Source: Phoronis australis
Taxonomy: Eukaryota; Animalia; Phoronida
Assembly: GCA_002633005.1 (NCBI GenBank)
Contig: NMRA01000395.1
Span: forward strand, 65,804-129,803
DNA: 64,000 nucleotides
Direction of reading: 5' to 3'
Every line of letters starts with the position of its first letter. Positions within the stretch are counted from its first letter, which is position 1. The notes under the pieces were generated by a model. The model was not told the DNA's origin, did no database searches, and saw nothing but the letters and a program-made list of their open reading frames with translations. Of the stretch, positions 12,620 through 43,522 are shown one piece after another. The position numbers were made by a program, and so were the translations under genes.

Positions 12620-13277
12620 TTAATGTCATTTATACCATCACCGTCATGTCCTGCCTAATAATCCCTTAATTTTGACAAAACGAACACGAATTCCTCGGAT
12701 GGTAACTGCTTATGTATTTATGGACACACTACGTTTTCAATAGTGATTCTCTAACGACCTCTGCACACATGACTTCATTTTCTACGCAATAACAAGACAG
12801 CGTTCTCAACCACTGAAATGATGTGAATTCTCTTCAGTTCAAGAGTGTCAATTGTGCGATTTTATGCAATTAAGGCAACTACACCACACTTTCTGCCAAA
12901 GTGATGCGGCTGCGAAAACGAAACACTAAGTCCGTTCCTAGCTCTTGTTCCACGCGTGGCATTTTTGATAAGGTTCTATTTACATGCTAGTCTTCGTATT
13001 GTATGCCTTAAGTTCGCCATCAAAGCGGATCCAGGAAGTCACGAGGGGATGTCATCACTGTGCAAGGGCAGCTGTTCTGACGTGTTATAAGTACGTAACT
13101 CTAAAAACAGTACGCCGTTGCTGTTTTTGTTATACACGAAGCTGGAAGGTTAAAGCCCTGACACACCCCACATCCTATTTTGTTCATCGTGCCTCATTAC
13201 CGCGTCACTGCCATGATCACTTTAACAAACATGACCTCAACCATTTATTGTCCCAATTTTCTGACCCCTAGACACGG

Positions 13278-13339: not shown

Positions 13340-15561
13340 TTGCGTACATGCCTCGGAATTGTACATCGGGGCAAGGAAACGTTGAGCACGAGTTTATCAC
13401 TTTAAACGGAAAAACGTGTCTCAAATTAACAAGACGTTTGTTTTCATGTATTTGACAGCTTAGATGAGATATCAAACATTGCACAAAGTGACATCAAAGT
13501 CTTTACAGGGTGCGATAAAGACTTACCTATAATACTCCCTTGTTAAAATTTCAAGACCAATAAAATACCAATGCCTGTTTCATGACACGTTAGCAAACAT
13601 TTTTTTTAAGTTAAAAGAGTGTGTATAATACGAGAACCAGCATGATTTTGTTCTTGAGCTCTAAATGTATATTTATTTGCAACATTTGGATAAATCTAGA
13701 ATCTCATTTACATGAGAACACCGTGATATGCTTGGGCAATATCATTTCAAATAGGCAGGTAAGTACCAATGCATTGCCTCTAACAGTGCGTTGCCGGTTC
13801 TCGAGTCGAAAGCAGACGATCTTCAATTTGACATTATTCAGGAATACTACACTGCACAAAAGTAAGCGACAATTTGTTCCTCAACAAGTTACAGCGGTGG
13901 TAGTCGTTAATTTTGGTCATTTAGACCAAACGTACAGTCTTTGTAGCGGGCTAACTTTCGATCTTAGCTGAGACCGATTTCATGAAACAGAGTAAGATAT
14001 GTTGGTCTTAAGTTAGCCCGATTTTTGGGACCGGATGTAAACAAAAGCAACAACTTAATCCATTGTAAGGACGAGTTTACGTAGTATAGATATCCATCCC
14101 ACGCAGTTGACATTTTCTCTATATCAGTTACACACAACATCAAATAAATCATATAAAGTGGGTTCGATACAATTTTAAATCATCATTGATTTTCTTAATG
14201 CCTTTTTTGGTCATTGCCCAGTTCAAATCTATGAAAAACGCCGGTGCATCTGGAATATTTCTTCCGTTACAGCCGCTTTCACAGAGGAGACTCTGTCAAA
14301 TTTGTAAACATCACATAGATTAATCAGTGATCGTCTTATTCGAATTCAAATAATGAACCAAACATCTTTGAAAAGAGTTTAATTTCGATGCCAGTTTTAA
14401 GGGCTTTAGTCACGGTTGACCTATTTATCTTCTTTCCTGAGACCGTTATGTAGTGGTGATGCAGTAACATCATTTCTAAAATCTAGTGAGCCATTAACAC
14501 CAAACTCTCCCCTATGCAATTACATTCGGCACAACTTTTCGGTCGGGTCACTGGTCCAACCAACTTCAGGTGACATAGAGTTCTTAGAGAAACGAATACA
14601 GGTGTGCGGTACACTAAAAGCGCTCATCATCGACCAGCATACACCCGTGCTTGTTCTTCTACGAACGCTGAAACACTTGAAGATGGCCTGAGAACTTTCC
14701 AACAGAAACGTGGTGCCAACGTAAATAGGCTAGACATTGGTGTAAATATACATGTATGCACATGTAGACGAATGGATTTTAGTAATGATGTTTACCAATT
14801 TAGTTACTTCGGCGTAAGTAATCGTTTTATTTTCTAGATTTTGAGTATCTCACGTTTTAAAGTTTTGGTTTGCTTACATCGTGTTTTTCTTCTATGTTTT
14901 ATTTGGAGTCACATCGTGTTTTCCAAGTCATCATGAAAAACGTCTGCGCTATTTCAGTTCAAACACTGTCACATAAGGATGCCCACTATGACCATAGCTT
15001 CTCAGGACGCGACAATATCAAGTTCACGATTACTTCGCTGCGTTCACTAGTTGGCGATTATATTGTTGGGATTGTGAAATAAGTCCATATGTGAACAATC
15101 CCGGACGAAATTCTTTTCTGTAATAAGCTTACATTTGACCGCTTGATCAAAGTAATATCTAATGTCTATTCTTGGGTTTGCGTATCATTTAATGTCCCAT
15201 ATCTGTGAATCTTTATATTTCGAGCTATTATTTAATGCCTTAAGAAAACAAATGATATTTTTCTAAATAAAAAAATGAATTATTTGAAGTAATAATCAGA
15301 GTGTCCAGTGTTTCATACAATGATCAGTGTCGTAAAATAACGACTGCTTTATGGCATTATAGGAAACTGTGTCGAACCCCCTTAACAATTTGTTTTCTTT
15401 ATCATATAGTTGCATAGCAACCCAAAAACAGTCTTGCTCGACCTCGTATTACTCTGTGTTTGATAGATGTCGCCACCACCGCGTGTGCAGTTCTATCTCT
15501 GTCGCAGCGCCACCAAGTTGAGAAGTAGCACTGGGAAAGAGTTCACACTAAGTCCACAAAT

Positions 15562-15657
15562 TTATCGATACAGTCGTCTGCTCCAACCGCAGTATCCATA
15601 CCGTCCTGGTTTCACGCCGTAACAGAACGATTGGCAACACTGTCTGTGGTTTGTGCA
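15562..15657 (-). CDS. Double-knot peptide terminal coding exon 3 (CTNHRQCCQSFCYGVKPGRYGYCGWSRRLYR*)
   Basis: Acceptor tgtttttgtcttatag|TGC at 15657; TAA stop at 15564-15562; supplies exactly Cys II-VI of the second knot started in exon 2. Too short for the ORF track. Confidence 0.87.
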   Translation of the reverse strand, partial: CTNHRQCCQSFCYGVKPGRYGYCGWSRRLYR

Positions 15658-18600
15658 CTATAAGACAAAAACATGGCGAAATATACAACTAAACAACGTG
15701 TACAAATTAAAGTAGGGGAAACCAGGGTGATTTGAGCCCCACGGAGAATCAGTCGCCGCCAACCCGCTCTAAGGAGTGAATATTAACAGTAGGGCAATAG
15801 GTGGCACAGTTTGTACTCAGCATGAGAAGGTGCACTAGCAGATACTGCAGACTGGTGTATGGAGCGTTTTTTTTCGAAAGTATGTTTTGTACATATGCTG
15901 ATAAAGCATGTCCTTTCTTCTACGTTCGTCGAAACGTGTATTTTGATACCGATCCCGGTTTTGAATCACCCAATTCCAATCCACTTTATAACACACATAG
16001 ATTTTCTACATAATTGCGGAAGTTTTGAAAACACCTGATGAAAGTCAAACTGTCCAGGAAGGTTGAGCCAATTGTCACATGCGTGTGCCAAAGTGAGTAG
16101 CATTTCCAATTTTCTTCCAATTTGATAGTTAAGTAATTTAAATAGGCCCACAATTTAGACTCTTTGATAAAGATATTACATGCTTCTATTCATGATTCTT
16201 GTCTGAACTGATACAAATTAGGAACCCTTGCTTTCAAATACATGTAGCTATACCATATTATTGATTAACGACACCCAGCAAGTTTCAATTACACACAACG
16301 GTGAAAACCAGGGGCGGATACAGGATTTTGAGTTNCTTCTACGTTCGTCGAAACGTGTATTTTGATACCGATCCCGGTTTTGAATCACCCAATTCCAATC
16401 CACTTTATAACACACATAGATTTTCTACATAATTGCGGAAGTTTTGAAAACACCTGATGAAAGTCAAACTGTCACAGGAATAACCACAATTTCGCCACAC
16501 ACGCGCGCCGAGGCTAAAATGTAGGGACGCGGGGTCTCGAATTTTTGGGTTTGCGGACCTTATTACTAAAAAAAAGTTAAACGGGGTTTGTTCAAGACCT
16601 ATTCGTTGTGCGGGTGCTGGGCGCGCGCGTATTCTAGTCAGAAATTCATACCCCGAACTGCCAAGTGGTATCTGGGAGAATTTTAGGGGGGGGGGCATGG
16701 CTCTCTTGCCCTCCCAAATCCGCCACTGAAAACTACAGAACCTACATGTAAAGGCGCAGAACAGTTTTCTATATAACTGTTCATGACGTACAAAGCCGTA
16801 GCAAACTGTGAGATTATCTCTCCTTGATGTTGTGCTCAATTGTGCAGATGAGTTGAACCACTTGACAAATGCATTTACATTTTTTGTATCTGCAACAGGA
16901 GATGATATACAGCGAGTTTTGTCTCACTGTGCACGGAAATGACAAAGCTTCAATGTCGTTAAAACATCCGTATATTATTTTGTTCACTCCTGATGGAACT
17001 ATCAGCCATGGACAAAAAGTGGCTGAAATCACCACGCATGGTTTCCGCTAGTGGTAGAAAGACATCAACTCGCGATTTCCTTCGGGCAATTTCAATCTTT
17101 AAAATGATTAGCGTCTACAATATGAGAATTACTCATACCATATATTGATCACACTACAATATTTGAGCAACTTCAATGAGAATTTGATTAATATACCACG
17201 ATTAACAACCATTACTATGCCCATCACAACTGAACAGCGCTGCACGATGGAACACGTGGCATGTATTGAAAGCGACTACAAACCGGCGTTCGTAGACACT
17301 AATCGGATTTAGATCACTTGCAGCTACATGTATAACCTGGCCCCAACTTGTTCGGTACTCAGATGGGAAGTGGTGCCCAATGGTTTTAAAGACTAAAAGA
17401 CAGTGACTTCATTAATGCTTATGTACATTTTCTACTTGACCAACTTGCCATTAGTTACGACATGTACATATATTTCTATAGGTTGAAATATCAAAACGTA
17501 AAATCGATTAATTTCTGTAGTTAAGTTGGTAAGCAATCGGTGTTTTGACGCCGTGTTTATAAAACACGTGGTCGCAGAAATCACGTGGACTCTTAATTGT
17601 TGTGTATCAGAAATATGCCACAGGCAAGATACAATTGTACACGTTTTCACAGTGTTACGAAAGGTAGCACTGTGCAGTGGCGGATTTAGAGGGGGGCCAA
17701 GGGGGCCATGGCCCCCCTAAAATTCTACCAGATCCTATTTGTGAGTTCGGGTGCGAATTGTTGAGTAGCACATACTCGCAACCAGGGGCGCTTGGGGGTT
17801 GAATAAACAACGCATACGTCATGAATAAACCCGTTTACGGTTTTTTTAGTCAACAGGTCCGCAAACCCAAGAATTTGAGACCCCTGAACCCCCAGATTTT
17901 AGGCTGGGCGCTCGCATCTACCAAAATGCTGCTTACTCCTGTGCCCTGGCCCCCCTAACTCAATATCCTGGATCTGCCCCTGTTGTGGATCGTTGTTTAA
18001 CATGGCTTCTCATTGGTTAAAGTAATGAAACCGACGTCAGTCATTCCCACTGGTTGAAATCTGAGAAATCCATTTCAGTTCACTGTGACGTAGTATGGCG
18101 ACCACCTTTGACTTGAATAGGTGCAATTTAATCCAAGAAAACAAAATCAAGAGAACCCCGATCCAGTGGCTTAAAGGCGAAGGCAACCCTTTTTCATGTC
18201 TTTTTAGCAAAAATAAGATTCGTTGATTATCCCAGACATATTTTTCACCTATTTACTGCTTTTCGTAATTTAATTTATTACTCGTCGTCTACTCCGGAAG
18301 TGACGTTTTGGGAGGCAAGAATTTCGCGCCAATTTTTTTCATATAGTCTGAATGTGAGAGTAGTCGAGTCAGTCATTGTTCTACCTCGGTTGTGATAAGT
18401 TCGGTCGTCGTTTGCTTTTGCTTACGAGTCTGTCAACATGCCACGCTGTTGCTGCGTACTGGGGTGTACTCATTACCTTCTCACGTACAGAGGAAGAACT
18501 GTCCACTTGCCCGAGTGTCCCGCGACACACTCCCACTGAAGGGTGATCTGAGCACCCAAACTGCTTACATCCCGCGTTGTAACTTCCTCACCACACACCT

Positions 18601-21600
18601 GGCACCTTCCAAATAGCTTTAATACAAGTCCACAATAAACTTATCAAACTTAGGCTCACCGATCTGTTCATTGGATGACGAACTGTCCTTTTCACTGGGT
18701 GTCTGTATTCACTCCCACTACTCAACATCGCTGCAGGGCTGCTTACAGGCTCTGGGCTAGAGACAACAGCACAGGGCGAATCACTGCTAGTTACCGGAAT
18801 TGCACGCAATGGGGTACGTTCGGAGGCACGAGTGACAGTAGATGAAGTGCCTCGGTATGACACCCTTCTTCAGGCGTTCTTTCGAAGGGACCTTCATCAA
18901 TTCAGCGTACATTACATATATGTCATAATCCGACGGCAGAAAATGCTTGCCACACACTCGGTAACCCTCCACTGCTTTGTGCGTTGCGTGGACGGGTAGC
19001 GCTGCGTTCTTCACATGAAGGAGCTAGCCAAGTACGGCGAAGTGTGTCATCCTTCGGAAAGCGACGCAAGGTACCCAAAGCGCGTGTGAGAAGATAATGA
19101 GTACATCCCGCCACGCAGCAACAGAGTGGTATGTTGACTGACTTGTAAACAAAAGCAAACGACGACCGAACTTATCACAACCGAGATAGAACAATGACTG
19201 ACTCGACAGCTCTCGCAGTCAGACTATAATGAAAAGAAATTGGTGCGAAACTCTTGCCTCCCAAAACGTCACTTCCAGAGTAGAGGACGAGAAATTAATC
19301 AAATTACGAAAAGCTGTAATTAAGTGAAAAAAGTGTCTGGAATAATCAACGAACCTTATTTTTTGCTAAAAGTGACATGAAAAAAAGTTGCTTTCGCCTT
19401 TAAGCCCACACAAGTACAGTACATAAAGGCGTGCGCAAGTGGTGGCCATATATACTTCTGACCAAGCATACGCATTGATGCCCACACACAGAAGTCCGTG
19501 TGTCGTTCATCATGCTTCCACAGGGCCACTTTTCAGTACAGATGGCGCTGTGTCGCACGGTAGATACAACTATATTTACCGTAGTCGAATGTCTGACAAA
19601 GAACTACGTGATCTAGCATTACATCCGCGTCAAACTCGACGGACAGCGGTTACCCGGTGTGAACGTAAACAAAAGCATCCAATTTGCCACGCGTCTCAAG
19701 GGAAGCTCTCCGATAGGTTTGCAGATGTTTTTTGACAATCATACGGAAGATAGGGGATGGGGGGGGGGGGTTAACNGTTAACGGCTAAATATTAATCACT
19801 AAGAACTAAAATACACTGTTTATTATCATTAAACTGGTACATTATGGTCGATTTCAAAAGCCACGAGGCAGACTACAAGACTAGATTTATAAGTGGTTGT
19901 GCATTGTTACGGTGGCAGAAATATTTAGGCCCAACAAAAGAAATTTAATACGATGCATCAATGGCCAAAGCATTTGATTTTGTGTAAGATCCGTGTGTTG
20001 CAAAAATTCCGTTAGCAACAGTTTATGTCCAGGCCCGATGTGTTGCAACGTCCTAGATTGTCACAATGGCTCAACATGTCTCAAGCGTGACAACTTTCTG
20101 GACCAAAATGTCACAATATATTTCCTACAATGGTACTGACCCAAATCGCCACATCTAAAATTGCTGTGAGCAACTGGGGAACAGATCCTATGATTTTAGA
20201 CGTTTATGGTGACCACAACTTAAAAGTAGTGACATTTTGATCATTGCAACAATTTTTGTAGGTACATGTACATAGCTACAACTGGGTCGTGGCCAGTCCT
20301 AAAATTTTAAGTATGTAAATCCCTTGGTATCTTTTTGCGAATATGATATTGTAAACGAATGCTTTCGTTCCAATAGCACACATTCTATTTTGTTTAGAGT
20401 CTCAAGCAGCACCATCTTTTGTTTTGATCCATGTCTTGGGGCAGATAACGTTTGTTTCAATACTTTGAGTAAGCATTCACATTTACACTAGGGCAGAACG
20501 TAACGAATATGCTCATTATTTGTCTAAAATTATTTATTCTAGCTGGAAATGCGTTACTTATCTTGGGCCTTATTAGTGCTGCGCAAGTCTTTAACATTGA
20601 CACTTTGTTGAAGGGATCTGTCTAAATTTGATCAGGTTGGATTCAAAACGCGTTTAGAAAATGAAATGAGGAAAAGTAATGTCGATGAATACCAAATTGT
20701 TATTGTGCGTATTGGTGTCATTAACGTGATTTCGTTCAAAGCAACACCCACGTGTATAGGCAAAAACTTCCCCGGTTGCTTTGAAGTGCCATGTTTGGTA
20801 ATGCAAACGAGAGCACATGCGACGTAGAGACAAATTAGCGTTAATTATACAGTTGTTTTAAACTTTCTGAAATAGAAGTGGGACTAGAATATTACTTAAT
20901 AAAAAATAGAAGCTGTGTTGCGTTTTTTAGTTTTCTAAATTATAGCAAAGAATACAAAAATGAGACAATCCTGTAAACAAGTTCCGTCTAGAAACCTACC
21001 CGGAACCCGTTGGGTATGCACATTTTGGTCATGTCACGGCATTTCCCCATAATGCAGACTCCTTGGCAACACTCCGGTGTCGTTTCGCACTGAAATATAG
21101 ACGTACATGTCTGAAAAACTGTCCATACATAAGAGCTCGTCACGTGACAACTTCGGAGACTTACTTTAAAATGATAATCGAACATCAAGAGGGCTACCAA
21201 ATTTCACTCAAGTCTCTTCAAAATGTACTCATCCTCGAAAATTGACCTCAGGTCACCATGAAACTCCTTGTTGGGAAAAAAGATCAGTAAAATGTAAACG
21301 CATGTTTATACCTAGCCTGTTCACAGTTTAGTCAAGGACATAGAACGTGTTTAATGAAAGGAGGCGCGAAAATACTAGTGTCGTCAAAAACTGCTAGCCT
21401 CGCTTTCATATACTACATACACGATAATGCTCCTGGATACTAGCAATAACTCATTATGTACAAAATATCAAGCAAACGGTGTTTTGTGTATTATCTCTAT
21501 CATTTTTAAATGCGACAGTAACAACACCCAATTGGCTAGAAAATGCACGCGACTTCTCAACCAAAGTCAACACTGTCATAAGTATGAATGCAGTTTAGCT

Positions 21601-24600
21601 TATACGTCTCTGGTTTATGCTTACAGTGGGTGTTCGTGGCCAGAACAAGACTACAGTGATGCGTGCATACGACCACTAGCGTCGCCTATCGCATAACCAG
21701 GGCCCGGTCTCCAATCTTTTTACTCGAAATGGAACTCGAAATTAGGTTTGGCATTTTCTACTCTACTTTTGGGCGAACTCAAGATAAGTGTCTATTATTC
21801 TATGCTCGAGTACACAATAACTTACGTAGATAATTTATTGCCCTTAGTTCACAGTTTGTAAACCCAATATTAAAGCAATAAGTTCGAGTTTTTACTCGAG
21901 TTTGTAGCACGAATATAAGGGCCTTCAAGGGCAAACTTGAACTAGAAACTCCTATGCATAAACTATAATGTATTCGAGCACAGTCTGATAACCAATTATC
22001 TTAAGTTCGCACAAAAGGAGCAGAGAAATTGCCAAAAATAGTTTCGAGTTCGTTTCGAGTACAAAGATTAGAGACCGGGCCCTGATCCTGTCGGTACCCC
22101 TGACTGGGTTAAGTAAAGCAACGAGTTATGTGTTGAACATTTGACATACCTTAACCAATGTGCGTAAATTATTTCATGTTATTAGAACTCAAATAATGTG
22201 TCCTCTAAATAGCCGATGTTTTAGTTTGAAATGAAACATGGAAATTAGGATCTAGCTACTACGTAGCTCTATGATAAGGCGTTTTCATTACAGTCGAAAT
22301 GGGTTAACTACTTGGTACATTAAACAAACGCTGTTTAAAAACACATCAACACATTAGCTAAGGTGGGTGACAATGGTTTACCGCGGTAAATACATTTCTA
22401 TTTTATGAAATTACTTAACAAAATTAAGGTTAAGCGGAAACTGTCACCTCGTAATTAGCATTGCAGTCAGCATCTGAAAACTTGTAACAGGTTGACGATT
22501 AATTTGTAGTTTGCTGAAACATTTGTACCACCGAGTGACTTCCTAGAACAAATATTAACGATGAAATCAAAATTCTTTAGGTGCGAGTTCTTTCGCATTT
22601 TTTAGGAATACCATAATGAATATTTTGATTGTTTTTACATTGATGTAAAAACGTAAATCAATAAAACAACTTCAGTCCATTCGTCCATTAGTGTATATAC
22701 AGTATAGTGACAGTCAGTGAATAGCACCAAAAAAAATTTCACTTGCCGCAAGAGTTGGACACTCTTTCAAATGCTCGGAATGCATCTGGCTTACACTAAG
22801 AACGTACCAGACAAAACATCTCGAGTCGTATCTAATATATGATCTTGCGAAAAGTCTTTCAAATTAAGCCATGTTTCGATGTAACATTTTATTAGGAGCA
22901 TCACAGTACAGTGGAATATCCCTGTCTATAGCATTCGTATCTGTCTTCTGCCTTGAAAGGCAATCTCTTGAAATCTTTATTATCTTTTCACTTATTTATT
23001 ACTGCCTTTGTAGATTGATGAGCTTGATACTACTCTGCCACTAACACAGAAAACGGATACTCTTATTTACTAAAGAAAATGTGTTCATACATAGATAATA
23101 AATTAAAATAGTTACAATTCATAGGATTTACCAGTGAGTGAAAGTTTGCAACCGGACAAAGCAAAAGGCTCCTCCTCAAATCACGAACACGGACGAAGCT
23201 TTTCAAAGATAGCGATGCATAAATCGAAAGTGGCGTTTTCCGCGCTCTAAAAATAGTCAACATCGCCACATGTGAGCGCGATATTAGGTTTGGGAACGGG
23301 TGCAGCCCACACTGAGACATTTAACTAAAGGCCTTGCGATTATTGGTCGTCGGCTTCTTGCTTTTTTAAAGGAGAATGCCGCCCGATTTAATTAGTCTTT
23401 TTTGCCGTTTTCATCGGTCTATATCCACATTGCCTCTCATACGGTCGACCGTACCTTGCAGAGAGGTGTCGCGTTAACCTGTCAGGAAGGTGAGAAACGA
23501 TGCAGCGACGTCAGTGGTTCATTTGCAGAGTGAATGCCGCTATGTTGCGGTGCATCGTTCCCGCTTGTCCGAAGTATGCAGCTGCGAGGAAAGCAGATAT
23601 ATCGTTTTATCGACTTCCTCAAGAGTTCGAAATGCTTAGAAAGTGGCTCGCAGTAGTGAAGAATCAAAAATACGCTGTAAATAGCAAGTATAAGGCCGTG
23701 AAACATCTCCGTGTCTGCAGTCGTCGACAGTGCCTGGCGAATGCCGGCTTACCAAAAGCTGTCCATTCGTTCCGTTGTCTGAAATTCTTCATGGCGCCTC
23801 TCTAGTATTTCTTTATCACTGTATTCAGGTTCGAACTGATAGCCAGTGAAACTTAATGAACCACCTGCGAAGTTTTCGTCGGGATGAGCTCTCGTCTAAG
23901 TCGGGATTGCGATTTGCCACTTGGTATATTGACGTTTATTACTGAACGTTTTCTTTCAAAATGAATCATTCTCACCCTAACCAATATATAACTGAGACAA
24001 GGTCTGACACATTAGATGTAATTTGTAATGCCTTTGGAGTGCTCGTGAGTGCAAATGATTTGAGAAGCCAGCAACGAGTAAATAGGTGCAATAAACTAAT
24101 TGACGGCACACAGAGACCGTGTGAGCTCATGCTAATTCAGTGTTTGCTGACAGAAACTGTTGTGAAACAACTCGATTTCTATCCTACCGCCAGGTGTTAA
24201 GGGAATCTTTATTTACATTTATATTATTCAAATAATGATTTTCAATGTACAACTTCTACCCTGAGGGTTCTGTTTCTAAAGCGTAAACTGTATTCGCGGA
24301 CCCCGACGATCGAGTAAATAGATTTGCAGTTTCATGGCTAAGTCACCAACATAATCACGTGCACAATACTTCTTTGGCTCAATAGTATAGTATTTTTTGA
24401 CTGGAAGCTTAGTTTCCAATTTGACTGGTTTATGTTCGTGATGTCGTCAGTCCCGCCGGGCCGCGACGGGCCTGATCGGTTTCCGAGCCACTGGCCGGGA
24501 TAACAAGCGTTTTGTGTGTTTAGACCTCAAAAAATCACAGGTCCAAACAACACAAATCTAGGTTCTCCCGTCTGTGTCTCACGGAAAAATACTTCGAAAT

Positions 24601-27600
24601 TATCTCCGAACAGACTCCGAACTCCTGCTACGGACCTTGCCTGCCGAAATCTGTAGGCTACGGTGTTTCCGAATACCAATAAATCCGTAACAGCAAAAAA
24701 AAACAACACGTTTTTATAAGAACTCGGTGTATTTTTAAAGGTTTTGCATCGGATTTTGATGATTTATTGGTGTTAAACGATGAATTCAAGCGATAAGCTG
24801 ACACCAGTGACCCGTGTTTTGAACTGCTGAACAGACTGCGTGTGAAACCAATTTCGTCATTGGATAATTTCAACACCTCCGTCTGCCGTCAGATGTCAGG
24901 TAACGCAACCGTACGTGCCGTTATCGAGTAGAACTACTCGATCTAAATGGATACAAATTAGGTTGTTTTTTGAGTGGCATGCTCCTTTAAAGGCGTCTTG
25001 GTCTTGGCGAGAGACTGTGGTTGCACGCGGCGGCGCTTTTCCTTTTATCACGGAAGGCGACACTCGCCATAACTAATATTAACTGAAAGCGTTTTTAAAT
25101 GTTGATCTGGCGGTCATATTGGGTTTTGCCCCTAGCAGCTACATGTACATTAAGTGCAGGTAGTTCTGAAAAAAGCACCCGGTCTGACTGTCTATCATCA
25201 ATGGCTAAGGAACGCATTTTACTCTTTCCTTGTAGTCTTACTCTTATATGTACGGAGCACGGAAAGTGTATGTACAACACCCTTTCAACTCACGGTCCCT
25301 CAAAGCAAGCCTAATTGCGATGATTAACCCATTTCGACGCTGAGACATCAATGGATAATCACGATAATTAAAAAATGATAAGTACTGTAATGGCGTGTTT
25401 GTATGGTCCTTGATCACACTGATAATCCTTTTGAGATTTCATGTAAAACGTACTAATTGAAAACACTAAGTGAGAAATGTTCGACTCGAAATTCGTTGCG
25501 TCGATTCTAAATAGAAGCAGAATATTTATAGTTTGTCATTAAACAAGAATGCCTATTATTTTCATGTGGATTGTAACCTATACCATGGGTGATGATTTTT
25601 CACGTAAATCACGCAATGGAAACTGATGATTTCTTACATGCAAGTATTTCTGATCGTCTTAAACATAATACAGAGTAGCATTCTCAAAACTTTGCATCAT
25701 TAGAAACGAGACGCGTTTCACGGCTCCTTGTGATACTAGGTGTTAAGACCGTGACACGCAAAAAATTATCTCTGCGCATGTACCGTGTGTTTGCCTGACT
25801 CTTAACGTGAAAAAAGAAATTATCCTCGGAGGAGAATCTGTCTGGATTTTCCGTTTCTCGTCAAGAGTGATTTAACAGTTTGAGTACTTGAGACATAATC
25901 GCGACCGGTATCAGCAAGACATTACAGACTCCCGTAGGTATTAGCGTTATCTCGCGAGAATACAGATAACCGTTGACGGAGGTTTGATGAATTATAGAAT
26001 TTTTGCTTGCGTGTTGTAGAAAGTGTTGTTAATTGCTTGTTCCATCAAACCATTATACACATGTAAAGTAAAGTAAACACATCGACATTTAAGTGGTGGC
26101 TAGATCATTCAATTCCCACCACACCAGTAAACTATTTTGTGAGACTAGATATTAGCTGTGGAACGTGCGAAACGTGGACTCGAGCAAGGCATGTAAACAA
26201 GCAAGAAATTTATCTAATATTTAAAACGTTACGATTGTAGCCCATGTCGCATTTAGAATTTGGACTTTCTATGAAAGGACACCTGAAACAAAGGCAAACT
26301 AGGCCGTAAACGACGCGAGAAGAATCTTACGTTGTCATCGTAACCGTTAGAGGTTGGGCCACTCGACTGGTTTGCGCACCACAGAATTTGCCGGTTCAGA
26401 TCAAAGAGCCCATGTTGTGGTTAATCAAATCGCTCCATGGTGCTATGTTATCGTTCTCTAGGTTATGAGACCGTGATTAGGTATGACATTGGTATTTTTA
26501 AGTTTTCTTTTTGAATTTTGTAAGTTGCATATTTGATTAGTTCGTGAAAAGCACACTTGTTAAGGTTTTTGAATTTTGAAAACTGGACAAGGAATGTGAC
26601 TTTTACAACTTTAAACGTTTGTTTATTGTAGCAATAATACGTTACTCATTAATTCCGCTGTGTGTGCATCATAAATGAGCAAACTACCAAACCACCTGGG
26701 AGAATTGGATATTGAGTTAAGCCAAGTGTCATAGTATAATTCTTGGCATGGAGACAACGTTCAGAAAGGCGTCCTGTCTGTAATTTCAGCATCAAGAAAC
26801 AAAGGGTTATTATTGTGGTCAAACGCGTGGGAACACGATTGGCGGACTAAACGCGACTGCAATTGGCATAATTGGCATGCTGTCTTATAACGAAGGCAGA
26901 TCTTCTGTCTGATTTCGGCGTGTGATCTTAAGAAGAAATATTCGACATATATAATGAGCATTCATGTCAATTTTGTCAGAAGGCGGATTTGACATTACAC
27001 TCTTCCACAGTGCTAGGAAAGGTAGCACTGTGAAATGTTGTTTAATATTGCATCTCATTGGTTGAAGTAATGAAACCCACGTCTTACATTCAGTCATTCC
27101 CATTGGTTGAAATCTGGGAAACCCCCTTTCAGTTTACTGTTATACATGTACGTAGTATGGCGACCACCTTGGACTTGAATAGTTGCAATTTATTAAAGGT
27201 AGTGATGTAAGTAAACAAAATCAAACGAACCCCAATCCAGTGTCTTAAGCCCAAATCGGCACAGTGCATAGAGGCGTGTGCAAGTGGCGGCGATTTGATC
27301 GGTGTACTTCCGACCTGGGCATGCGAATTGATACCTACACACTTAATTCCATGCGTCTTTCATCATGTTTCCACAGGGCCACATTTCACTATACGTGGCG
27401 CTGTGTCAGAAGATAGTTTGACATTCGATATGTTGATCGGACGTCATGTTACCGCTGAAAAGGACCATTCTAAGTCATTTGTAGCTATACAATTTTCACA
27501 AGACGATTTCTTAACTTACAGTCTCGAAATATTTCCAAAAATCCAGATACGTTTACACCGCCCATTGACTGTGGCATCTACAGTGTAGGTGGATATGTCT

Positions 27601-30567
27601 AAATCAATGATTTGTAGCGAAAATATATTCGACAGTCAGGAAGTCCAATTCTTTCGGTTGCCATTTAAAGATGTGATGATCTCGTTTAATAGCTCACTGG
27701 TTTATAGAAATTCAACGAGCCAAATTCTTTTAAAATTTCCGGCTTAAAACACCATGGAGGTTAATTATAACAGTAAAATAAGGTTTAAGTGACACACTCA
27801 TGTACGGGGCACCACAGGAGGCTGGAAGGCCTATAGCGCCCCACTTATTTTAGTGCTGCGCCGCCCGTGTTATATGGTAGCGCACCATAGGGAGTTGGAG
27901 ACTGTAGCCTCTACTTACATGTATTTCTGCTGCGCCTCCCATGTTGCTACTTTTTAGTCCCCTACCTACACTGACGTAGAGCAACTTCCACTAGAGCAAC
28001 ACACACACACATGCGCACATCCGACAAAGTGTAGGGCAGAAGCTGTTGCTTGGCGCATGACAATGAAAAGCTGATTGGAGTACGGCGCGAAAAAGATGAC
28101 CTGGATTTATGCAACGGCAGCTGATAATTACAGTGTGACTTCCGCCTTCACCCGGGTTTTGGGCCATACAGTTGTCACAAGTTGAGAAGTTGCACTAGTG
28201 TATGACCAGAAAAGGCCAATTTTCATCCATCGTGGTTCACTTGAACAAAGACACCAACTCTGGGCACATGAAGGATTGGAGGCTAACAGCAATGGGGTTG
28301 TGGCATACCGCTTTCCCAGGGCTTTGGCATTAAAACGGAATGATCAGTGCAACATGCGTGTATTCAAAGGTATCATGTAGATGAAAGTTTTGACTACTGA
28401 TAAATTCCTATAAAACACTTCTAAGATATAATCAGGTGGCCAGAAGCGGTATTACAGAACGTGTGGTGACAAGCACACGTACCCCATGTAAGTTTACACG
28501 AAATTGGATCGAAGGTGTTATCATTGGATATTTTGTTACGCTCAGTCTACCACCCCCGTCCAGTTGCCGACAGTACACTGTATTCTACTGCACTGTTGTC
28601 AGCGCTTCACGTCACAGGTTCCTCCGACTTCATTAGAAACACAATTGGTCCCGCAGACCACATTAGTCTAATACCATTAATACGCATGCATGTACATGTG
28701 TGTGCTGGCTTTGCTTAAAAGTTATGCGAGCAAGGCTCTCATCGAAAATTTTAATATGCTTTCTTCACAGTTGTTACGATCGAAAGATACCAGGATTATG
28801 AAAGAATAACCCTCTGATCTATTCATGTGTCCTTTGCAATCAAAAGTACATGTACCTAAGTTTTTTTGTTGATTGGAGGCTTTCAGTTGCCCCAGACAAT
28901 AAAGACATTCAGCAAGTATCAATTCAGAAGGTCGCATGACTAGGTGGTGACATAACTTTTGATGAGGACATCAATTAAAAATGAGCAAAAACGGTAGGGA
29001 ATGGATGTCGACAATACAGTATTCTCATGTGAACTGTGAACCTAGTTTACCAGGTTGTACTTTTGTGCAAATATCTTAAATTCTGTTAGCTCTAACCCTA
29101 TAAAGTACATATTTTCTGAATAGGTTTCTAACAAAATTTTATTATTCTTATTTACTTGTCTTTATGTAGTCACGAGATATGCGTTTTTAGTATTGTTTTA
29201 CTTTGGACAGAGATTTTGCAAATATTGTTCCTTGGTCATCTGGCAACGTGTTGATAACGACATTTTGGACGGAACCGTGCCTCATATTTTTGAAATGAGT
29301 CTTAGGTTTATAATTATCGAATTTTAGAGCAATTTGAGCAAAAACGGCCGTACTCTTGAAAAATGAGACCCATTGCAAAAATTTGAGACACGGTGCCCCG
29401 TTTGGTGGGTGTCGTAATAGGGAAGTTTTTGACATTGGCGTAGGAAACATTTGATGGTGTGGAGGGAGGGTTCACGAAGAGAGTCTGTCGAATTTTCAAT
29501 TTTATTTCAAATTAGGGAGTGGAAATCTCTCTCCGCCCGCCAACATTTTGGATGAGGGGGCGATCGCCCCAATCCCCCGCTTCTTATGCCAATGGTGGAA
29601 AGAAATGTGGAGTTTGTACTTCAGAAAGCCTATCTTATATTTATTTCTTCCAAGACTCCCGTGGGCAAATCCTGCAGGATCTGTACCTGCCCACCATGCA
29701 ATTGCCACTTCCGCCCAGTCACCATCGATTAGTCACTCCCGGCTTATTTCCCGTAATTTACATTATCTGAATTATTCTTTCTTCATTTACACGATGTTTT
29801 TGCCTATGTGTGTGTTTTCCAATTCACTGCTTAAACTTAATATTCTCAATATTTTAAAAAAGACTCTTCAAAATTTTGAATTTAACAAAATATTATCGGA
29901 CATGTTAATCGACACGTCGCGTGCTTGTATACTTCTTCGGACCACACGACTGCTAGGTGTCGCTACGATCCATCACACAGTAATGACGGCCAATGTGGTT
30001 AGTCCTCCTACTAGTACATCTATGGTAGATGTAGAGTTTTGTATGAATGAGCAATTTGACCTCTGCACGTAGCGGCTTCTGACAACAGCTAAACAAATCA
30101 CGATCAAGAAAATTTGATCTCGAGTAAAACTATCCTATACCGCACGTTTAAAAAGTGACCCAGTCGTTTTAAATGCCGTTTCTAACAGGATCAAAACTGG
30201 GCATTTTGGTAAAAAAATAAGTAATGTGTAATTTTGCAACAGACAAGTTTTTAAAATTATAGTCACCAAGACTTCCTGAGAATACGCTTTGATTAAATTG
30301 GTAATAGCGAATTTTATTAAGTTCTGAAAGGGTGGCATTTTGTGTCCTCTACCTCCAAGAGCTATACTGGCAGACAAAACATGAGCAGTTTTATCAACTT
30401 TCCATGAACACTGCTTTCCCACCGTCTTTGCTGTCTACTAATCTCCATTAAACAGGCTTAGGTCTTACCCTTTCAAAATTAGATTTGCAGCTTTCAGCGT
30501 TGACGGCGGACACGAGCAGGCACGCAATAACGGCAACGGCAAGGATTGAGGATATATCTTGGCGCAT
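15562..30567 (-). CDS. Spliced gene, join(30567..30469,21089..21000,15657..15562): secreted double-knot (tandem ICK/knottin) cysteine-rich peptide precursor, 94 aa
   Basis: Three exons of 99+90+96 nt join in frame through canonical phase-0 GT-AG introns. The product is a hydrophobic signal peptide (ends AVNA) plus a 70-aa mature peptide with 12 Cys in two C-X6-C-X5-CC-X3-C-Xn-C units (n=4 and 10). Confidence 0.88.
16309..16728 (-). mobile_element. hAT-type MITE (CAGGGGCGGAT..ATCCGCCACTG) with 5-bp TSD AAAAC; interior disturbed by an assembly join at n16335
   Basis: TIRs and aaaac flanks; same family as 17675-17982 in the opposite orientation. Confidence 0.65.
17675..17982 (+). mobile_element. 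hAT-type MITE with near-perfect 5-bp TSD (ctgtg/ttgtg)
   Basis: cagtggcggatttag ... ctggatctgcccctg; the paralogous segment at ~27030 lacks the insertion. Confidence 0.75.
18175..19399 (-). mobile_element. Kolobok-like element (family B) with ~290-bp terminal inverted arms and THAP pseudogene
   Basis: TTAA|AGGCGAAGGCAAC...GTTGCTTTCGCCT|TTAA; empty site with a single TTAA at 27245; minus-strand THAP remnant CCVAGC..RFPKDDTLRRTWL..YRVCGKHFLPSDY..KGVIP (18840-19130). Confidence 0.85.
21000..21089 (-). CDS. Double-knot peptide coding exon 2 (CETTPECCQGVCIMGKCRDMTKMCIPNGFR)
   Basis: Acceptor ctatatttcag|TGC at 21089; donor CGG|GTAGGT at 21000; 90 nt, phase 0-0; lies within ORF-track entry 20988..21200. 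Confidence 0.88.
21701..22081. mobile_element. PIF/Harbinger-type foldback MITE
   Basis: GGCCCGGTCTC TIRs extending into long imperfect inverted arms; CAG/CTG flanks; termini shared with 54447-56045. Confidence 0.75.
23370..24986 (+). mobile_element. Non-autonomous Kolobok-like element (family A, copy 2), in intron 1 of the knottin gene
   Basis: TTAA|AGGAGAATGCC...GGCATGCTCCT|TTAA; THAP remnant ORF 23500-23805 (CIVPAC..FYRLPQ..KWL..LRVCS). Confidence 0.85.
27005..27410 (+). repeat. Dispersed segment paralogous to 17645-17674+17983-18174+19404-19555 (uninterrupted version)
   Basis: Shared blocks aaggtagcactgtg, cagtcattccca.tggttgaaatctg, cgtagtatggcgaccacctt, atccagtg.cttaagccca, ccacagggccac. 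Confidence 0.8.
27799..27943. mobile_element. Degenerate copy of the small CATGGG-MITE family
   Basis: Ends in tgctgcgcctcccatg; internal cacttatttt.agtgctgcgcc shared with 4553-4710. Confidence 0.5.
30469..30567 (-). CDS. Double-knot peptide coding exon 1: signal peptide + start of knot 1 (MRQDISSILAVAVIACLLVSAVNAESCKSNFER)
   Basis: ATG at 30567 in gaaATG context; hydrophobic core LAVAVIACLLVSAV; donor AGG|GTAAGA at 30469/30468; acceptor-like ttctcttttcag just upstream (30581) suggests a possible 5' UTR intron. Confidence 0.88.
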
Positions 30568-31435
30568 TTCGAAACAGCTCCTGAAAAGAGAATGCCGGCG
30601 ATAAAAGAACTGGTTTAATGCAGGATGTACCAAACTTAAGGAAGTCTGTAGCAAACGTCATGTTTATAACACAGGGACTGCTGCCAAAACCGTATGAAAT
30701 AGAAACCAAACATCCTACAGGAGGAAGCTGTCATTGATGTTTGTTCCAAAATGTATCACTTGCTGCCACTCTTCAGATGTTTAGACATCCTTCAGAGAGT
30801 GCCAGTTGATCAGCTCATATCTGGTATTGACAAAATGTAACAGAAAACCCGCAGAGATGCGTGCCACTGTAGCCAATTTCCGTCAGACGTCGTTGTTTGT
30901 GTAGGTATATATACAGACATGAAAAATACATACATACACATGTACATACATACACACACACGCACACGCACACATATACTTGAATGTCGCCACGGATGCA
31001 TGCAAAGCAAACCAAGGCATTAAAGAATACAACATCGATTGACTGTGACATTCGGAACAGTTGGGGTATTGTCGTAGCCTTAAATTATCTCTAGGACATG
31101 TATTCCGTCTGCGCATGTGCAAGGGGTTTGGTGAAGAGAGAGTTAAAGCCATGTCTTCAGCTCAACCAATCTTAAAAGCCTTGAAGGACGTCATATTCAG
31201 TCTTTAAACTGCCTGCTGTAGCACTTTCAATTAATGTAGGCCTCCTGTATTACAATGGTATGCCACTGCAATCAACGACATTCTCCATTTTAAGAGCCAC
31301 ATGACATGCTTTCCTGAATGAAGTTCACGCATGCGCAAAAATGAAACATCCCCTGGAGGACGCTTTTTCAGTAACTATACAAATGTGAGACCTCAGAACG
31401 TCAGTCTCCTGGAGGCTTACTACACTGCGAGGAGN

Positions 31436-31634
31436 AATGCTAGTCGCTGATCTCTTGTGTTCAACCCATGATGTCACATGGCGGGAAATGTGAAAATTGG
31501 CAAAATTGAAAGAGAAATCAAAATTTCGAGCTAATGACACAATATAATCATGGATTTGGCTAAATTTTACGTCATACATTTAGTCTCTGGCCACCGGTAA
31601 TTCGAAATGTGCAAAAATCCATGGTGTGTACTGT
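31436..31634 (+). mobile_element. Right end of a family-D Kolobok-like element (alternative haplotype after the n join)
   Basis: Near-identical to 7880-8078 and followed by TTAA; the flank 31635-31864 duplicates 31204-31434. Confidence 0.8.
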
Positions 31635-33404
31635 TTAAACTGCCTGCTGTAGCACTTTCAATTAATGTAGGCCTCCTGTATTACAATGGTATGCCACTGC
31701 AATCAACGACATTCTCCATTTTAAGAGCCACATGACATGCTTTCCTGAATGAAGTTCACGCATGCGCAAAAATGAAACATCCCCTGGAGTACGCTTTTTC
31801 AGTAACTATACAAATGTGAGACCTCAGAACGTCAGTCTCCTGGAGGCTTACTACACTGCGAGGAGCTTGTAAACCGCTGTTTTGTACCCGGAACCGAGTT
31901 GATACACGTACGGGTAACCAATTCACGCATTACCATGCTCATCAATCCCTTATACACCATTGCTGCTACGGGAAAGGAATTCCATTGATATGAATTATAT
32001 TCTGCACCAGTGAGCAGGAGCATATAGCCGTGTCACTTGCGGTGATCATTTATGTAGTTATAGCGCCTTACCATTTTAATAGTCAATTTAATGAATCCAT
32101 ATGCTCCCATAATTAAAGATTTATTGCGTATTATTGGATGATTTGCTACGAATAGAGCACGTGCTCATTAAGCTCTTGATCACAATGAATCTAACGAGGC
32201 CAGACAGAATCAGTAGCGTCATTATGTTGTTGTCAATGTTGAAGCTATTAGTAGTCTTTACAAAACAACATCTAATTTCAGTTATAAGCACAGATTGCAT
32301 AATTGTTTAAAACGAAAAATATAACGTACAATAATTGGAGTTAAGTTCAGAAGGCACTGGAAACCATACACTATATTTGGGTGTCAAAGATATTGTATGT
32401 ATACCAATATGTATACAGATGAGGACAGGTATTAACATATACATTGAATGCAACACGATTTCCATTGATATATATGTAGCTACAACTCAAAAATATCCTT
32501 AAAATGTTAAAATATGTAAATAAATCAATTTCTTTGTAAATGTTGTGTCGATAAAGATCAAGAATGACAACGAGTTATACATATACGAAGTGTAAATAAG
32601 ACATTTTAAGTGAAGAAATAAGCAACGGTTTAGGTAAATTTATGTAGTCAATGTCAGTTTGAGCAACTAATCATTCTCCTTTCAAGGAGAAATTCAGCAA
32701 AATTTTGGAATAAAGACATATTTTTACTGGCATCAACTTGTCTATATCAATTAAGCAAAATGTAATTTTACGAAAACCATTCGAGAATTCTGAGTAACAG
32801 GTGTGATTATCTGGGTGTTTTAGAAAAGCTACTAGGTTCTCTCATATTCGTAAACTGCGCAATGAAATATGACATAGACACTGTTACACCAACACTAGGC
32901 TAGGCGAGGTGCTCTAACCCTAGCGGTTTCTTAGGACATCAGACGAAATCTGGCAACAGCAATATACGTTGTATAACCAGCCAAGTAGCCAGTCAAGACT
33001 ATTCATCAAGGCTGAGCCGATTTAACTGAGGAATTCTAATCACCAGTGGTGTTTATCGTGATGAATCTCCTAAAGATCTGACTGAGGGGAGAAAAGAGAC
33101 AGAACCTTGTGTGATTCAAAATGTTACAACTGCAGTACTGGCGATAACGAAAATAAACCTCTTGATGATATGAGTATGGGTCTTGTGATCTCGCGACAGC
33201 CGCACGATACCAAAGAAGGTCATGACTTTTTGCAGTCGCATGATAATAAAAAGACCTTTACCTCAGACAATTGTAAGATAATGGAGAAGAACTACGTGTT
33301 CAGTCAACTGCACTTCAGCTTGGTACCGGTTACCCGCAAACAAATTAGAAAATTGTGATGGGTATCACAAACTCAGCAATCTCGCGAAAGGAGATTGTGT
33401 GATC

Positions 33405-33480
33405 GGAGGCCAGTGGAGGCCAGTGGAGGCCAGTGGAGAACAGTGGAAGCCAGTGAATTAGAGGAGGCAAGTGGAGGCCA
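33405..33480. repeat. Short tandem repeat of a 10-bp unit (GGAGGCCAGT)
   Basis: ggaggccagtggaggccagtggaggccagtggagaacagtggaagccagt... Confidence 0.85.
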
Positions 33481-36400
33481 AAAAATCACGTGCTTTGCTT
33501 GCAATACTTGCAGATGTCTCGCGAAGTCTTGTGTGTTCTTGCGTTTTCGCGAGGTTTTACGTTTACAGAACGGGTGCCAGGTCAGTGAATTGTGCCAGTT
33601 AATATCTTAGTCTTGATCTGAGCCAAGTGCTCAGATTACTGGCTCAGGAGTCTCTTACAGTACATGTAGGTTTCGGCGGCGGTTCTAAGATATCATCTGT
33701 GGCCGGGAACCAACATTTTGTCTCGCAGACAATCGCAGAGTGTACAAGTGCGGAGCGCCGAATGGGTGGAGGCCGGGAAGGGGTTCTCCAGTTCCGCCCA
33801 GGGGAAAATTTTGTTTTTGCCTCTGGAAACAATTATTTTTCTTGATTTTGAACTCTAATCAGCTCTCGACGGCTCTACTTTGGCCAGGTCACTCGCAGGT
33901 TCCCAGCGTGCCGGTAGGTGGTCGGTAGCCAGCACGCAGGTATTACTTAATTTTCCTGGGGATTTCTTTTACACCGGCGTTTCTGATTGACTAGTCAAAT
34001 TCTCCATAGGCAGCACTTTACGCAAACAACCTGGCATTACTGATGGACTTTTAAAAGTGTAAACGTGGTAAGTTGGTACCTCAGACAAATCAGTGCTTAA
34101 AATTTATGTTCAGGAACGGTGAATCCTAGAAATTGTAGTTGCGCCTTTCCGGAGTGCATCTTTCTACTGTCGATGACTTTTGCGTACGATACTGTACTGT
34201 ATTCACACAGCATGAAGAACACACCGGTTAAATCGGCCAGTTATGCGTTTATTATACATGTATGTGCTTCAAGCACGCGACTATTGAACATAACTGCAGA
34301 AACGAAATAGTTGCTGCGACGCCACTTGCATGACAAGGTTAAAATCGTTCACAGTCCGCCATTTTTTCACGGTGTTGTAAACCTAACCTAACCAATGACT
34401 GCTGAGGTTACATCAACCAATGCTAAAGCGCATGCCACTGCGTGATACCTGCGTGCTGGCTAGGCACGTAGGGGACCAGCAAGGCCAGGTCGCTGTTTGC
34501 AACAAGGCAGCAAAATCCCACGACCCAGATTGGATTCTGGAATCCGACGTTGCTGCACGGCGAAGAAAGAAGATTTTTAAATTAAACAAACTAAAAATTA
34601 TTGTTTTAAAACCTTTAAACAGTTTAATCGCGGTAGTTCCATTTGTCATTTAAAAATGGAAAATTCGTGAAATTGTAAGCACTCGAACTCACAACCTATT
34701 GGTCACAATACGTATCACACTTCCAACTATAACACCGTGCCAAGAAATCTACATGTTAATGGTCCGCAGCGTTCCCGCCCCAACATGCTTCTTTCCCTAA
34801 TGTTTATAACATGCTTTACATTTTGTTAAACCAGTTCGTAGCGAAATGTGTTGTGTTTAAAGCAGTCTTAAGTTTCCCAAAAGGCCAAATCCGTTTGTTG
34901 TGTTGGCATTCAACCACGCGCATGCTTTGCAAATCGTCTTAATTTAATGTTTGGCAAATAAGGAATTGTTCGTTTCTGATTGATTAACTCGGGCTTCGAT
35001 TAAAGGTTACGTCCAACCAGCAGTTTACGTTTCTTCATCGTCGCCCAGGTGACGTTTTAAAAAAATGAAGTGGTTTTCTTCATCGTGCATTGGAGCAGAC
35101 GACGGAAAAATAGTGATAATTCTCAGCACCACTGCCAGACGTCTGGGATATCACATACATGTACAAATCGCACGACAGCGGGATTACTTAGCCACAGTTT
35201 CCATAACAATAGTGCCGCATGTCTGAATCGGACACTTGAAATCGAGTCCGAGCACCCCCAGCACGCACGCTCACGCTAAAATTCCACACATAGTCAAATC
35301 TCGTTTCGACCGTATTATGTTACTTACCGTGGTCAATTAACAAACTCGAAATTTTCTCACGCTTTTGCTGTTTTTTTTTTCGCGACCGCCAAGGGGAAGG
35401 AGACCCTATGAGTGTGTACGTAGCTCCTCGTTTGCACAGAGAACAAATCAGAGAACAAATGCAGTTGATAGTGCGTTGCGTTTCTTCTCCAACTCAACAG
35501 AAGTTATGTGTGTGCGTGATTTGTAATGGGGTGTTTCATAAAAAGCGCGATTGTACTAGGATAATTAAAAAACTGCGGAAACACAGTTTACACAGTTTTT
35601 CGGATCAGACTCGATCATATCAAGTCGTGTTGATATCGCCCAATTTTGTTGCTTGTATTTCCCGGGGGAATATGATATAACTCTGACCGTTGCTATTACC
35701 GCGTTTGCTGGGCATGGTTTATCGAACTCCTGCAGCTAATGAGAAATTACGAAATGGTTGCTAATGTGTCATAAATGCACAGAACTGCCAGGTTATTGTT
35801 TATCTATAAACGTGTATCTGCACACTGTCGAGGGAATTAAAGGGTTGTTTAGTGAACAATCTATTCAATTTTCCCAAATAACTGTTGACATTCCACTAAT
35901 CATCTTGGTCATCAACCGTAGAGTGAATATATTTCTGCTCGTCTCAACGTTTTTGTTCTTCCACCCCAAAAAAGTGGTCCGGCAACGAGAACCAGCTTAG
36001 TTTAATTTGGATTTGAAATTCAGAATGCACAGCATCTGACTTTAACTTACATTTAATTCCCACGACCTTAGCTTCACAACTATATGGGCATATCACCTGT
36101 TATCGGGAATGTGATAGTCTAAATCTTCGCAAAACATCCCTCATTGTCAGTAATTAGAACACGTATCCAAGACATAAAAATAAATTGAAAGAAGTACTTG
36201 GAAACTTAAAAGTTACGTAAATAATAAGATCTTGGCTATATAAATCCTAGCTGCCATCATGTTAATTAAGTTTCTTACGTGCAAACCGATTTTTAGCTGT
36301 ATACAAACATTTGATAACTTCTAGTGTTGTACTCGATGCTAGTTTCACTCATCATTGATAGTAACACTGTAAAGTTGCAGATCTCAAATCCATCTGAACG

Positions 36401-36539
36401 TTACAGGAGGCATCGACATCATGGCAAACTTACCGTGTGATCCTCACTGAATGAATGCTTTGGAAAACTGATAATAGTTCGCTGACAGTTCATCCTTATA
36501 TAGACGTGCTACAATAACGCCAGACCCAGGTGACGTCAG

Positions 36540-43200: not shown

Positions 43201-43522
43201 TTTGCTTTGAAAGTATCGTTTTGCGTTGGAATTGACCCCAAAACATAAAACTAGCACCAAAAATGAACTTTTCACCTCCCAAAATATTGAAACGATGATA
43301 TCACAATTTGTTCTATTGATAATAATAGCCAACCTATGCCAATTTCCATTTTCGGCGGCGGCCATATTGGATTTTGCGCGTAACAACCACCAGGGGGTAA
43401 GCACACTTTGTTTGCGGTGTTTTTTGAATTTCTTTTGGTTATACCTAACAGCGTACCAAATTGCAAAAACTTGTCACAAAGTGCCCAATTTTTGCAAATC
43501 TGCACATATTCCCTCCCCGCTA
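40292..43522 (+). mobile_element. Academ-type DNA transposon (internally deleted), 3-bp TSD TAA
   Basis: TAG...CTA termini; ~280-bp TIRs (tagcggagagggaat.. / ..attccctccccgcta); taa on both sides. Confidence 0.85.
40690..42890 (+). pseudogene. Academ transposase/XPG-like nuclease/Cys-cluster remnants
   Basis: MGMLHIEMA..LLDGSGW..GKHVKRT, RRVDAVWDTY, LPLFHVLTGCDVVSAMFG, LPPT..FQH, and a terminal Cys cluster (CKGNCKC..CTT..CEGAC); many stops and frameshifts. Confidence 0.75.

Follow-up and report, generated by a model that had tools for sequence, protein, structure and literature searches.

A 64-kb stretch of the genome of the phoronid Phoronis australis (contig NMRA01000395.1), termed the window here and the reference for all coordinates below, carries on its minus strand a gene for a cysteine-rich precursor that would behave as a tandem knottin. 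The gene is real and expressed and comprises four exons, three coding and one 5′ non-coding, which extend at minimum over positions 14200-36457. An initial annotation had proposed a three-exon gene for a secreted peptide with two inhibitor cystine knots (ICKs). The exon coordinates, reading frames and phase-0 GT-AG splice sites that it gave were borne out by the sequence and by RNA joints, and its three coding exons stand; the gene also possesses a fourth, 5′ non-coding exon that ends at 36434. The features of the gene from upstream to downstream are as follows.

36531-36538, minus strand: perfect CRE-type palindrome, a candidate regulatory site 36 nucleotides (nt) upstream of the TATA box
36495-36502, minus strand: putative TATA box, with an initiator-like motif (36471) 31 nt downstream of it
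36434-36471, minus strand: exon 0, 5′ non-coding, ~24-38 nt, placed by loose read ends and a GT donor at 36433
30581-36433, minus strand: intron 0, 5853 nt, GT-AG, derived from loose read ends and not from a joint read
30469-30580, minus strand: exon 1, with 13 nt of 5′ untranslated region (UTR), start codon at 30567, predicted signal peptide, and Cys-I and loop 1 of knot 1
21090-30468, minus strand: intron 1, 9379 nt, phase 0, immediately 5′ of Cys-II of knot 1, crossed by joint reads
21000-21089, minus strand: exon 2, symmetric (phase 0-0), with Cys-II to Cys-VI of knot 1, the 6-residue linker, and Cys-I and loop 1 of knot 2
15658-20999, minus strand: intron 2, 5342 nt, phase 0, immediately 5′ of Cys-II of knot 2, crossed by joint reads
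15562-15657, minus strand: coding part of exon 3, with Cys-II to Cys-VI of knot 2, an 8-residue basic tail and the stop codon
14200-15561, minus strand: 3′ UTR, at least 1.36 kb, with a one-strand read depth of 12-28 in bins 14200-15513

The coding exons measure 99 nt (30567-30469), 90 nt (21089-21000) and 96 nt including the stop codon (15657-15562). All three consist of whole codons in phase 0, with GT donors and with AG acceptors behind pyrimidine-rich tracts. Scanning the six frames for knottin-like cysteine patterns returned 10 rows, five of which fall on exons 2 and 3; the remaining rows lack a reading frame and splice context. Paralogues, for which a tBLASTn search had been suggested, did not emerge within the 64-kb window: permissive tblastn and the pattern scan revealed no second copy of any of the three exons.

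Transcription of the gene was assessed in four RNA runs from the same species, comprising three raw-read runs of one study (X2-X4) and contigs from another (X1), with reads placed at 98% likeness. The joint between exons 1 and 2 (21089/30469) was read 18, 30 and 32 times in X2, X3 and X4, respectively (80 in total), and that between exons 2 and 3 (15657/21000) 14, 17 and 14 times (45 in total). Both coding joints also are crossed by a single 533-letter contig of X1. The first mate of all joint reads is on the plus strand, which is the pattern expected of minus-strand RNA in a stranded library. As the two junctions singled out in the initial annotation for confirmation by RNA were each read in all three raw-read runs and on the correct strand, the exon chain is not due to chance. 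The joint 15657/30469, by which exon 2 is skipped and a single knot remains, was not found among the nine joint rows. This single-knot form is absent or accounts for fewer than three reads per run, against 45 and 80 reads that include the exon. Expression was modest, at about 10 RPKM, and similar in the three runs (~8, 14 and 13 RPKM).

Exon 0 was placed by loose read ends behind position 30581 (21 reads in X3 and 24 in X4) whose sole match is at 36435 onward. Because this match lies beside the GT donor at 36433, the ends denote a short non-coding first exon. Trans-splicing was considered as the source of the 22-nt loose 5′ end and was rejected, as the segment maps to 36435 with a GT donor. 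The start site lies somewhere from ~36457 to 36471. We take the motifs further upstream to be CRE-type, TATA and initiator elements with a putative function. Three CRE-type sites, including that at 36531-36538, were detected by a pattern scan of the window, and this strand holds 31 TATA-pattern and 110 initiator-pattern hits, the weight of these two motifs lying in their spacing and position. The end of the 3′ UTR is not fixed, and an X1 contig runs 774 letters past position 14204.

The encoded precursor is 94 residues long and consists of a predicted 24-residue signal peptide and a 70-residue mature part with 12 cysteines. Hydropathy analysis marks a hydrophobic run at residues 7-22, which is followed by a small-residue cleavage motif ending at Ala24 (-3/-1 rule). 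The precursor is likely secreted, with a predicted signal-peptide cut after Ala24. The cysteines of the mature part are separated by gaps of 6, 5, 0, 3 and 4 residues in knot 1 and of 6, 5, 0, 3 and 10 residues in knot 2, with a linker of 6 residues. The identical core spacing C-x6-C-x5-CC-x3-C and the length of the linker are as given in the initial annotation; the last loop differs, with 4 residues in knot 1 and 10 in knot 2. Both units have the C-C-CC-C-C framework with knottin loop lengths. No propeptide is evident in the precursor, in agreement with the initial annotation, and the linker lacks a dibasic site. The 8-residue C-terminal tail is basic and devoid of proline. It includes one dibasic site without a preceding glycine, at which trimming is possible; amidation is not indicated by the tail sequence. 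Net charge is distributed unevenly (-1 in knot 1, +1 in the linker, +4 in knot 2 and +3 in the tail), and knot 2 with the tail has a net charge of +7 and several aromatic residues.

Each unit would form I-IV, II-V and III-VI disulfide bonds. It is quite improbable that the twelve cysteines instead adopt another connectivity, make up one larger domain, or belong to knots that are cleaved apart once secreted. In mussel, a synthetic MgCRP-I with the same cysteine pattern is reported to have folded with 1-2, 3-4 and 5-6 bonds, and cleavage of multi-module forms was proposed (PMC4558851). Structure searches also produced no match for the units here, though from incomplete pieces. AlphaFold models of the exon pieces (30-31 residues) show a two-strand hairpin between Cys-V and Cys-VI, with predicted local distance difference test (pLDDT) scores of 58 and 79. 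The fold search of these models disclosed no Z score of 2 or above among 48,161 chains and nothing by Foldseek; the pieces contain five of the six cysteines of a knot, and this blank is no evidence against the knot fold. The core spacing repeats exactly and the intron sits at the equivalent spot in both units, which fits two autonomous modules. The position of the modeled hairpin is compatible with an ICK, and the lack of a dibasic site in the linker is at odds with cleavage between the knots.

The most telling feature of the gene, which was overlooked in the initial annotation, is the intron that precedes Cys-II in each knot. Both coding introns are phase 0 and immediately 5′ of this cysteine, and exon 2 is a fused exon that encodes the end of knot 1 and the start of knot 2. 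A gene with one knot cannot acquire an exon of this kind when recombination in introns copies a whole exon. As the simplest route, we infer a tandem duplication that spanned an intron. The ancestral gene would have encoded one knot and would have carried an intron 5′ of Cys-II. The segment duplicated in tandem would have started shortly ahead of Cys-I and ended shortly past Cys-VI, with breakpoints in exons, so that the intron was carried along. The fused middle exon would then be due either to unequal crossing-over inside a single gene or to the fusion of two adjacent copies. CN exons of progranulin similarly combine the last part of a cysteine module with the first part of the following one, modules thereby being assembled across introns, but the granulin fold with its 12 cysteines is unrelated and the analogy is one of gene layout only (PMC4527844).

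The starts of exons 2 and 3 are identical at 20 of 36 nt, a value reached at only 32 of 127,928 positions in the window. The aligned exon 2 and exon 3 pieces are 32% identical with eight invariant columns, and the splice flanks of the two introns have no likeness by eye. As likeness is low in the exon starts, the aligned pieces and the splice flanks, the duplication looks old. Moreover, exon 2 is symmetric, and therefore its loss or repetition would give one or three knots in frame.

Homologues were sought with pieces of 30-60 residues. Exon 2 with its flanks had no homologue among proteins of 77-2000 amino acids, and an alignment of the exon pieces searched against proteins of 16-105 amino acids gave six candidates, none of which matched at E 10. 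A profile of the pieces compared with 1.84 billion representatives retrieved four hits, all of them repeat artefacts without the cysteine pattern. Among PDB sequences, neither exon piece nor their profile had a match at E 10, these short queries having limited power. Metagenome and viral contigs contributed 126 and 23 pattern matches, respectively, of which none was confirmed. Exon 3 had no Pfam match, and none of the three exon pieces, scanned singly, matched UPF0506. Knot 2 may resemble the plant and beetle antifungal knottins Mj-AMP, PAFP-S and Alo-3 in its short loop 3 and in a last loop of ten residues with abundant Gly and Tyr; this likeness did not surface in a literature search, Pfam or PDB. 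As the query pieces were short and the species seems poorly represented, its hAT transposase having no relative above 53% identity, the blank searches are weak evidence of novelty. With these short pieces, the proposal of an expressed two-unit gene with knottin spacing and without a detectable relative was upheld.

The closest parallel to the intron placement is in naickins and amickin-1, non-venom peptides of wasp and bee, for which a phase-0 intron before the second cysteine is reported to be conserved and which are grouped with the antimicrobial, chitin-binding tachystatins (PMC2853521; for tachystatins see also PMC8583803, PMC10608444). These peptides are secreted, have the ICK pattern, and carry a basic C-terminal extension, as does the phoronid precursor, but are described as containing a single ICK and a proline-rich tail, in contrast to the two knots, the intron in each, and the proline-free tail here (PMC2853521). 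None of the homology searches returned a sequence of this group. By this analogy, the intron position points to the non-venom naickin- and tachystatin-type group.

Two-knot precursors as such already are known from non-venomous animals. Tandem cysteine-rich proteins are described as common, with those of ICK type a minority (PMC6262176, PMC9885460). The UPF0506 double knottins of parasitic flatworms are secreted and contain 12 cysteines in two units, and the second unit of the tapeworm Schistocephalus has the spacing 6,5,0,3,4 of knot 1 (bioRxiv 10.1101/2020.02.03.932509). As presented there, the UPF0506 linker has 2 residues compared to 6 here and the other unit is spaced 6,7,0,4,9 compared to 6,5,0,3,10. 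The UPF0506 gene layout may equal that of the phoronid gene. Mussel multi-MgCRP-I proteins are secreted, share the C-C-CC-C-C framework, and have two to four tandem modules in a non-venomous marine invertebrate, but the modules are reported to reside in a single exon behind a propeptide, with linkers of 2-4 residues (PMC4558851). According to the same source, MgCRP-I genes form a large hypervariable family in which the propeptide is acidic with a dibasic site and the introns, of phase 1 and phase 2, are outside the mature peptide. The rarity ascribed to two-knot proteins in the initial annotation thus applies to characterized bivalent toxins, but not to two-knot precursors, which occur in non-venomous flatworms and mussels.

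About four bivalent knottins have been characterized, and all of them act on an ion channel for an unusually long time (PMC13172734). The double-ICK toxins DkTx, Hi1a and Xt3a have linkers of 12, 6 and 4 residues, respectively; among natural tandem ICK peptides, Xt3a was counted as the fourth (PMC9950431). In company with Hc1a and CpTx1, these toxins share with the phoronid precursor two tandem units of ICK spacing and a short linker of 4-12 residues (PMC13172734; PMC9950431). Their genes are reported to be part of large families expressed in venom glands (PMC13172734; PMC9950431). Spider venom ICK genes have a propeptide, and their introns, of phases 1 and 2, leave the mature peptide uninterrupted; in Hc1a the entire two-knot peptide is encoded in exon 3, behind a phase-1 and a phase-2 intron, following intra-exon duplication (PMC13172734). 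The phoronid gene deviates from this three-exon plan of signal, propeptide and mature peptide, with phase-0 introns inside the knots and no propeptide. Gene structure sets it apart from both the spider double-knot toxin and the mussel CRP-I families. According to a 2026 study, no case of repeat formation linked to introns has been reported among bivalent toxins (PMC13172734), and a literature search of non-subscription journals, UPF0506 gene structures aside, disclosed no gene for two knots that are both interrupted by an intron.

A bivalent ion-channel toxin in the manner of DkTx, Hi1a and Xt3a, present in mucus or a gland and gripping two channel sites, is a possible but minor alternative for the product. 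The two-knot layout and the 6-residue linker, equal in length to that of Hi1a (PMC9950431), are consistent with a toxin, as is the occurrence of ICK toxins in nemertean mucus (PMC10674772). The sole Pfam hint for exon 2 is a weak match to Conotoxin_I2 (E 0.0074, 16.8 bits versus a cut-off of 27 bits). The nearest Atlas clusters of both exon pieces are spider ICK toxins, omega-atracotoxin and cyclotides at scores of 0.78-0.84, with spider-toxin clusters at the top of both lists; these are leads only, as all scores are below 0.9 and shuffled proteins reach 0.8 a third of the time. The absence of a propeptide, the intron layout unlike that of spider venom ICK genes, the lack of a tandem paralogue in the 64 kb, and the modest expression in all three runs argue in the opposite direction. 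So do the coding differences: among 40 of the 70 variant rows, two are coding and both are synonymous, in cysteine codons.

Comparison of X1 with the window revealed one difference in 254 coding letters and one in 279 letters of the near UTR, but 39 in 999 letters of the far UTR (P 0.002 and 0.0008, respectively). The low variation in the coding sequence and near UTR fits constraint, in a pattern that comes from one run and extends beyond the coding sequence. In positions 14204-15202 of the 3′ UTR, X1 has 39 letter differences and 8 gaps relative to the window, whereas X2-X4 are mostly identical to it; either polymorphism is high in the species or X1 represents a distinct population.

This low variation, the long 3′ UTR with similar levels in three runs, and the TATA promoter with its perfect CRE-type site would suit an internal signalling or regulatory peptide, such as an agouti-like or agatoxin-like neuropeptide or a modulator of a protease or receptor, which we nonetheless consider unlikely. 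Agouti knots carry more cysteines than the units here, and no conserved orthologue was detected as expected for an old hormone, although databases may lack the lineage. The agouti A2 knots start with C-x6-C-x5-C, as do both phoronid units, but the agouti motif of Arg-Phe-Phe type is absent from the latter (PMC3397983). Also in favor of an internal peptide, conserved non-venom ICK genes are reported in spiders (PMC13172734).

We tentatively favor a role as a non-venom defence peptide that attaches to the surface of microbes. A 70-residue chain of two predicted cystine knots would be secreted whole, and the knots would stay joined because the linker lacks a dibasic site. Knot 2 and the tail would bind an anionic membrane or a chitin-type wall, and knot 1, with its net charge of -1, would add a second contact. 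A defence peptide is favored on the basis of the naickin-type intron position, the absence of a propeptide, the basic and aromatic nature of knot 2 and the tail, the modest expression, and the lack of a local gene array. The absence of phase-1 and phase-2 introns, the single copy in 64 kb, and the long 3′ UTR were counted likewise. The modest expression and the existence of two-knot precursors in flatworms and mussels, which are not venomous, make such a role likelier than that of a venom toxin.

Several points weigh against a defence peptide. The searches of proteins and DNA provided no homologue of known function, the only Pfam hint is to a conotoxin family, and spider toxins head the Atlas lists. 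Low expression, in RNA from unspecified tissue, is compatible with a gland product. Defence peptides often constitute variable multi-copy families, whereas this gene is single in the window and little varied. The intron match relates to four insect peptides from one paper and could reflect convergence, and the antimicrobial activity of naickins is itself assigned by similarity in that account (PMC2853521). More broadly, it is doubtful that the product is a true bivalent knottin ligand, whether toxin or defence peptide, in an animal lineage without a known example, and the first in which bivalency arose by an intron-spanning duplication that left a symmetric fused exon, with one, two or more knots to be had by losing or repeating one 90-nt exon.

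The surroundings of the exons are rich in repeats, and the transposon debris described in the initial annotation accounts for parts of the introns, as dispersed repeats and a THAP-domain remnant. The window has 40.7% GC with no CpG depletion (0.97), and Rfam and tRNA scans of it had no hits. Matches between introns 1 and 2 (17984-18174 with 27029-27248, and 19400-19554 with 27245-27407; 76%) were considered as traces of the knot duplication and instead were provisionally read as a dispersed repeat, because RNA reads map to both of their strands and their likeness exceeds that between the coding halves. At 18168-19406, an element whose long terminal inverted repeats are 88% alike is inserted in an older repeat, another copy of which is at 27029-27407. 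A 1.7-kb element has three copies that are 76-81% alike (10897-12624, 23366-24990 and 51595-53251). The copy in intron 1 (23366-24990) includes the THAP-domain remnant at 23494-23802 (E 8e-8) and has RNA reads on both strands. Also in intron 1, a 387-nt imperfect palindrome at 21698-22084, resembling a miniature inverted-repeat transposable element, has the highest RNA depth of the stretch read, on both strands. A plus-strand GT-AG joint at 26478-26788 inside the same intron was read 4, 1 and 0 times in X2-X4 and stems either from a rare antisense spliced RNA or from the transcript of a repeat copy elsewhere.

Beyond the gene, remnants of a hAT transposase are located at 39380-40417 and 43500-44980, with a Pfam dimerisation domain (E 9e-9); the best relatives are 51-53% identical and, among the 120 matches listed, oyster is at 42%. 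A second THAP-domain remnant at 38103-38429 (E 4e-9) and a weak match to the P2RX7 C-terminal cysteine-rich region at 48595-48861 (E 0.002) are presumably typical transposon cargo. Near-identical duplications beside a single N (31203-31865, 41738-42479, 42724-42888 and 15914-16480) probably are assembly artefacts, and intron lengths may be slightly overstated.

Overall, the locus provides an RNA-verified two-knot precursor without a database relative, in which the positions of the introns record the route of doubling and link the gene to a poorly studied group of non-venom knottins. It suggests a defence peptide that was doubled by a route other than that of spider Hc1a. The product is small enough to be made and assayed, and should it turn out to be an ordinary antimicrobial peptide, a new family and a clear example of domain duplication would have been gained. 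Annotation easily misses short genes of this kind, scattered across 22 kb of repeats, and from the symmetric exon 2 one would expect relatives with one knot and with three, in this genome or in those of related species.

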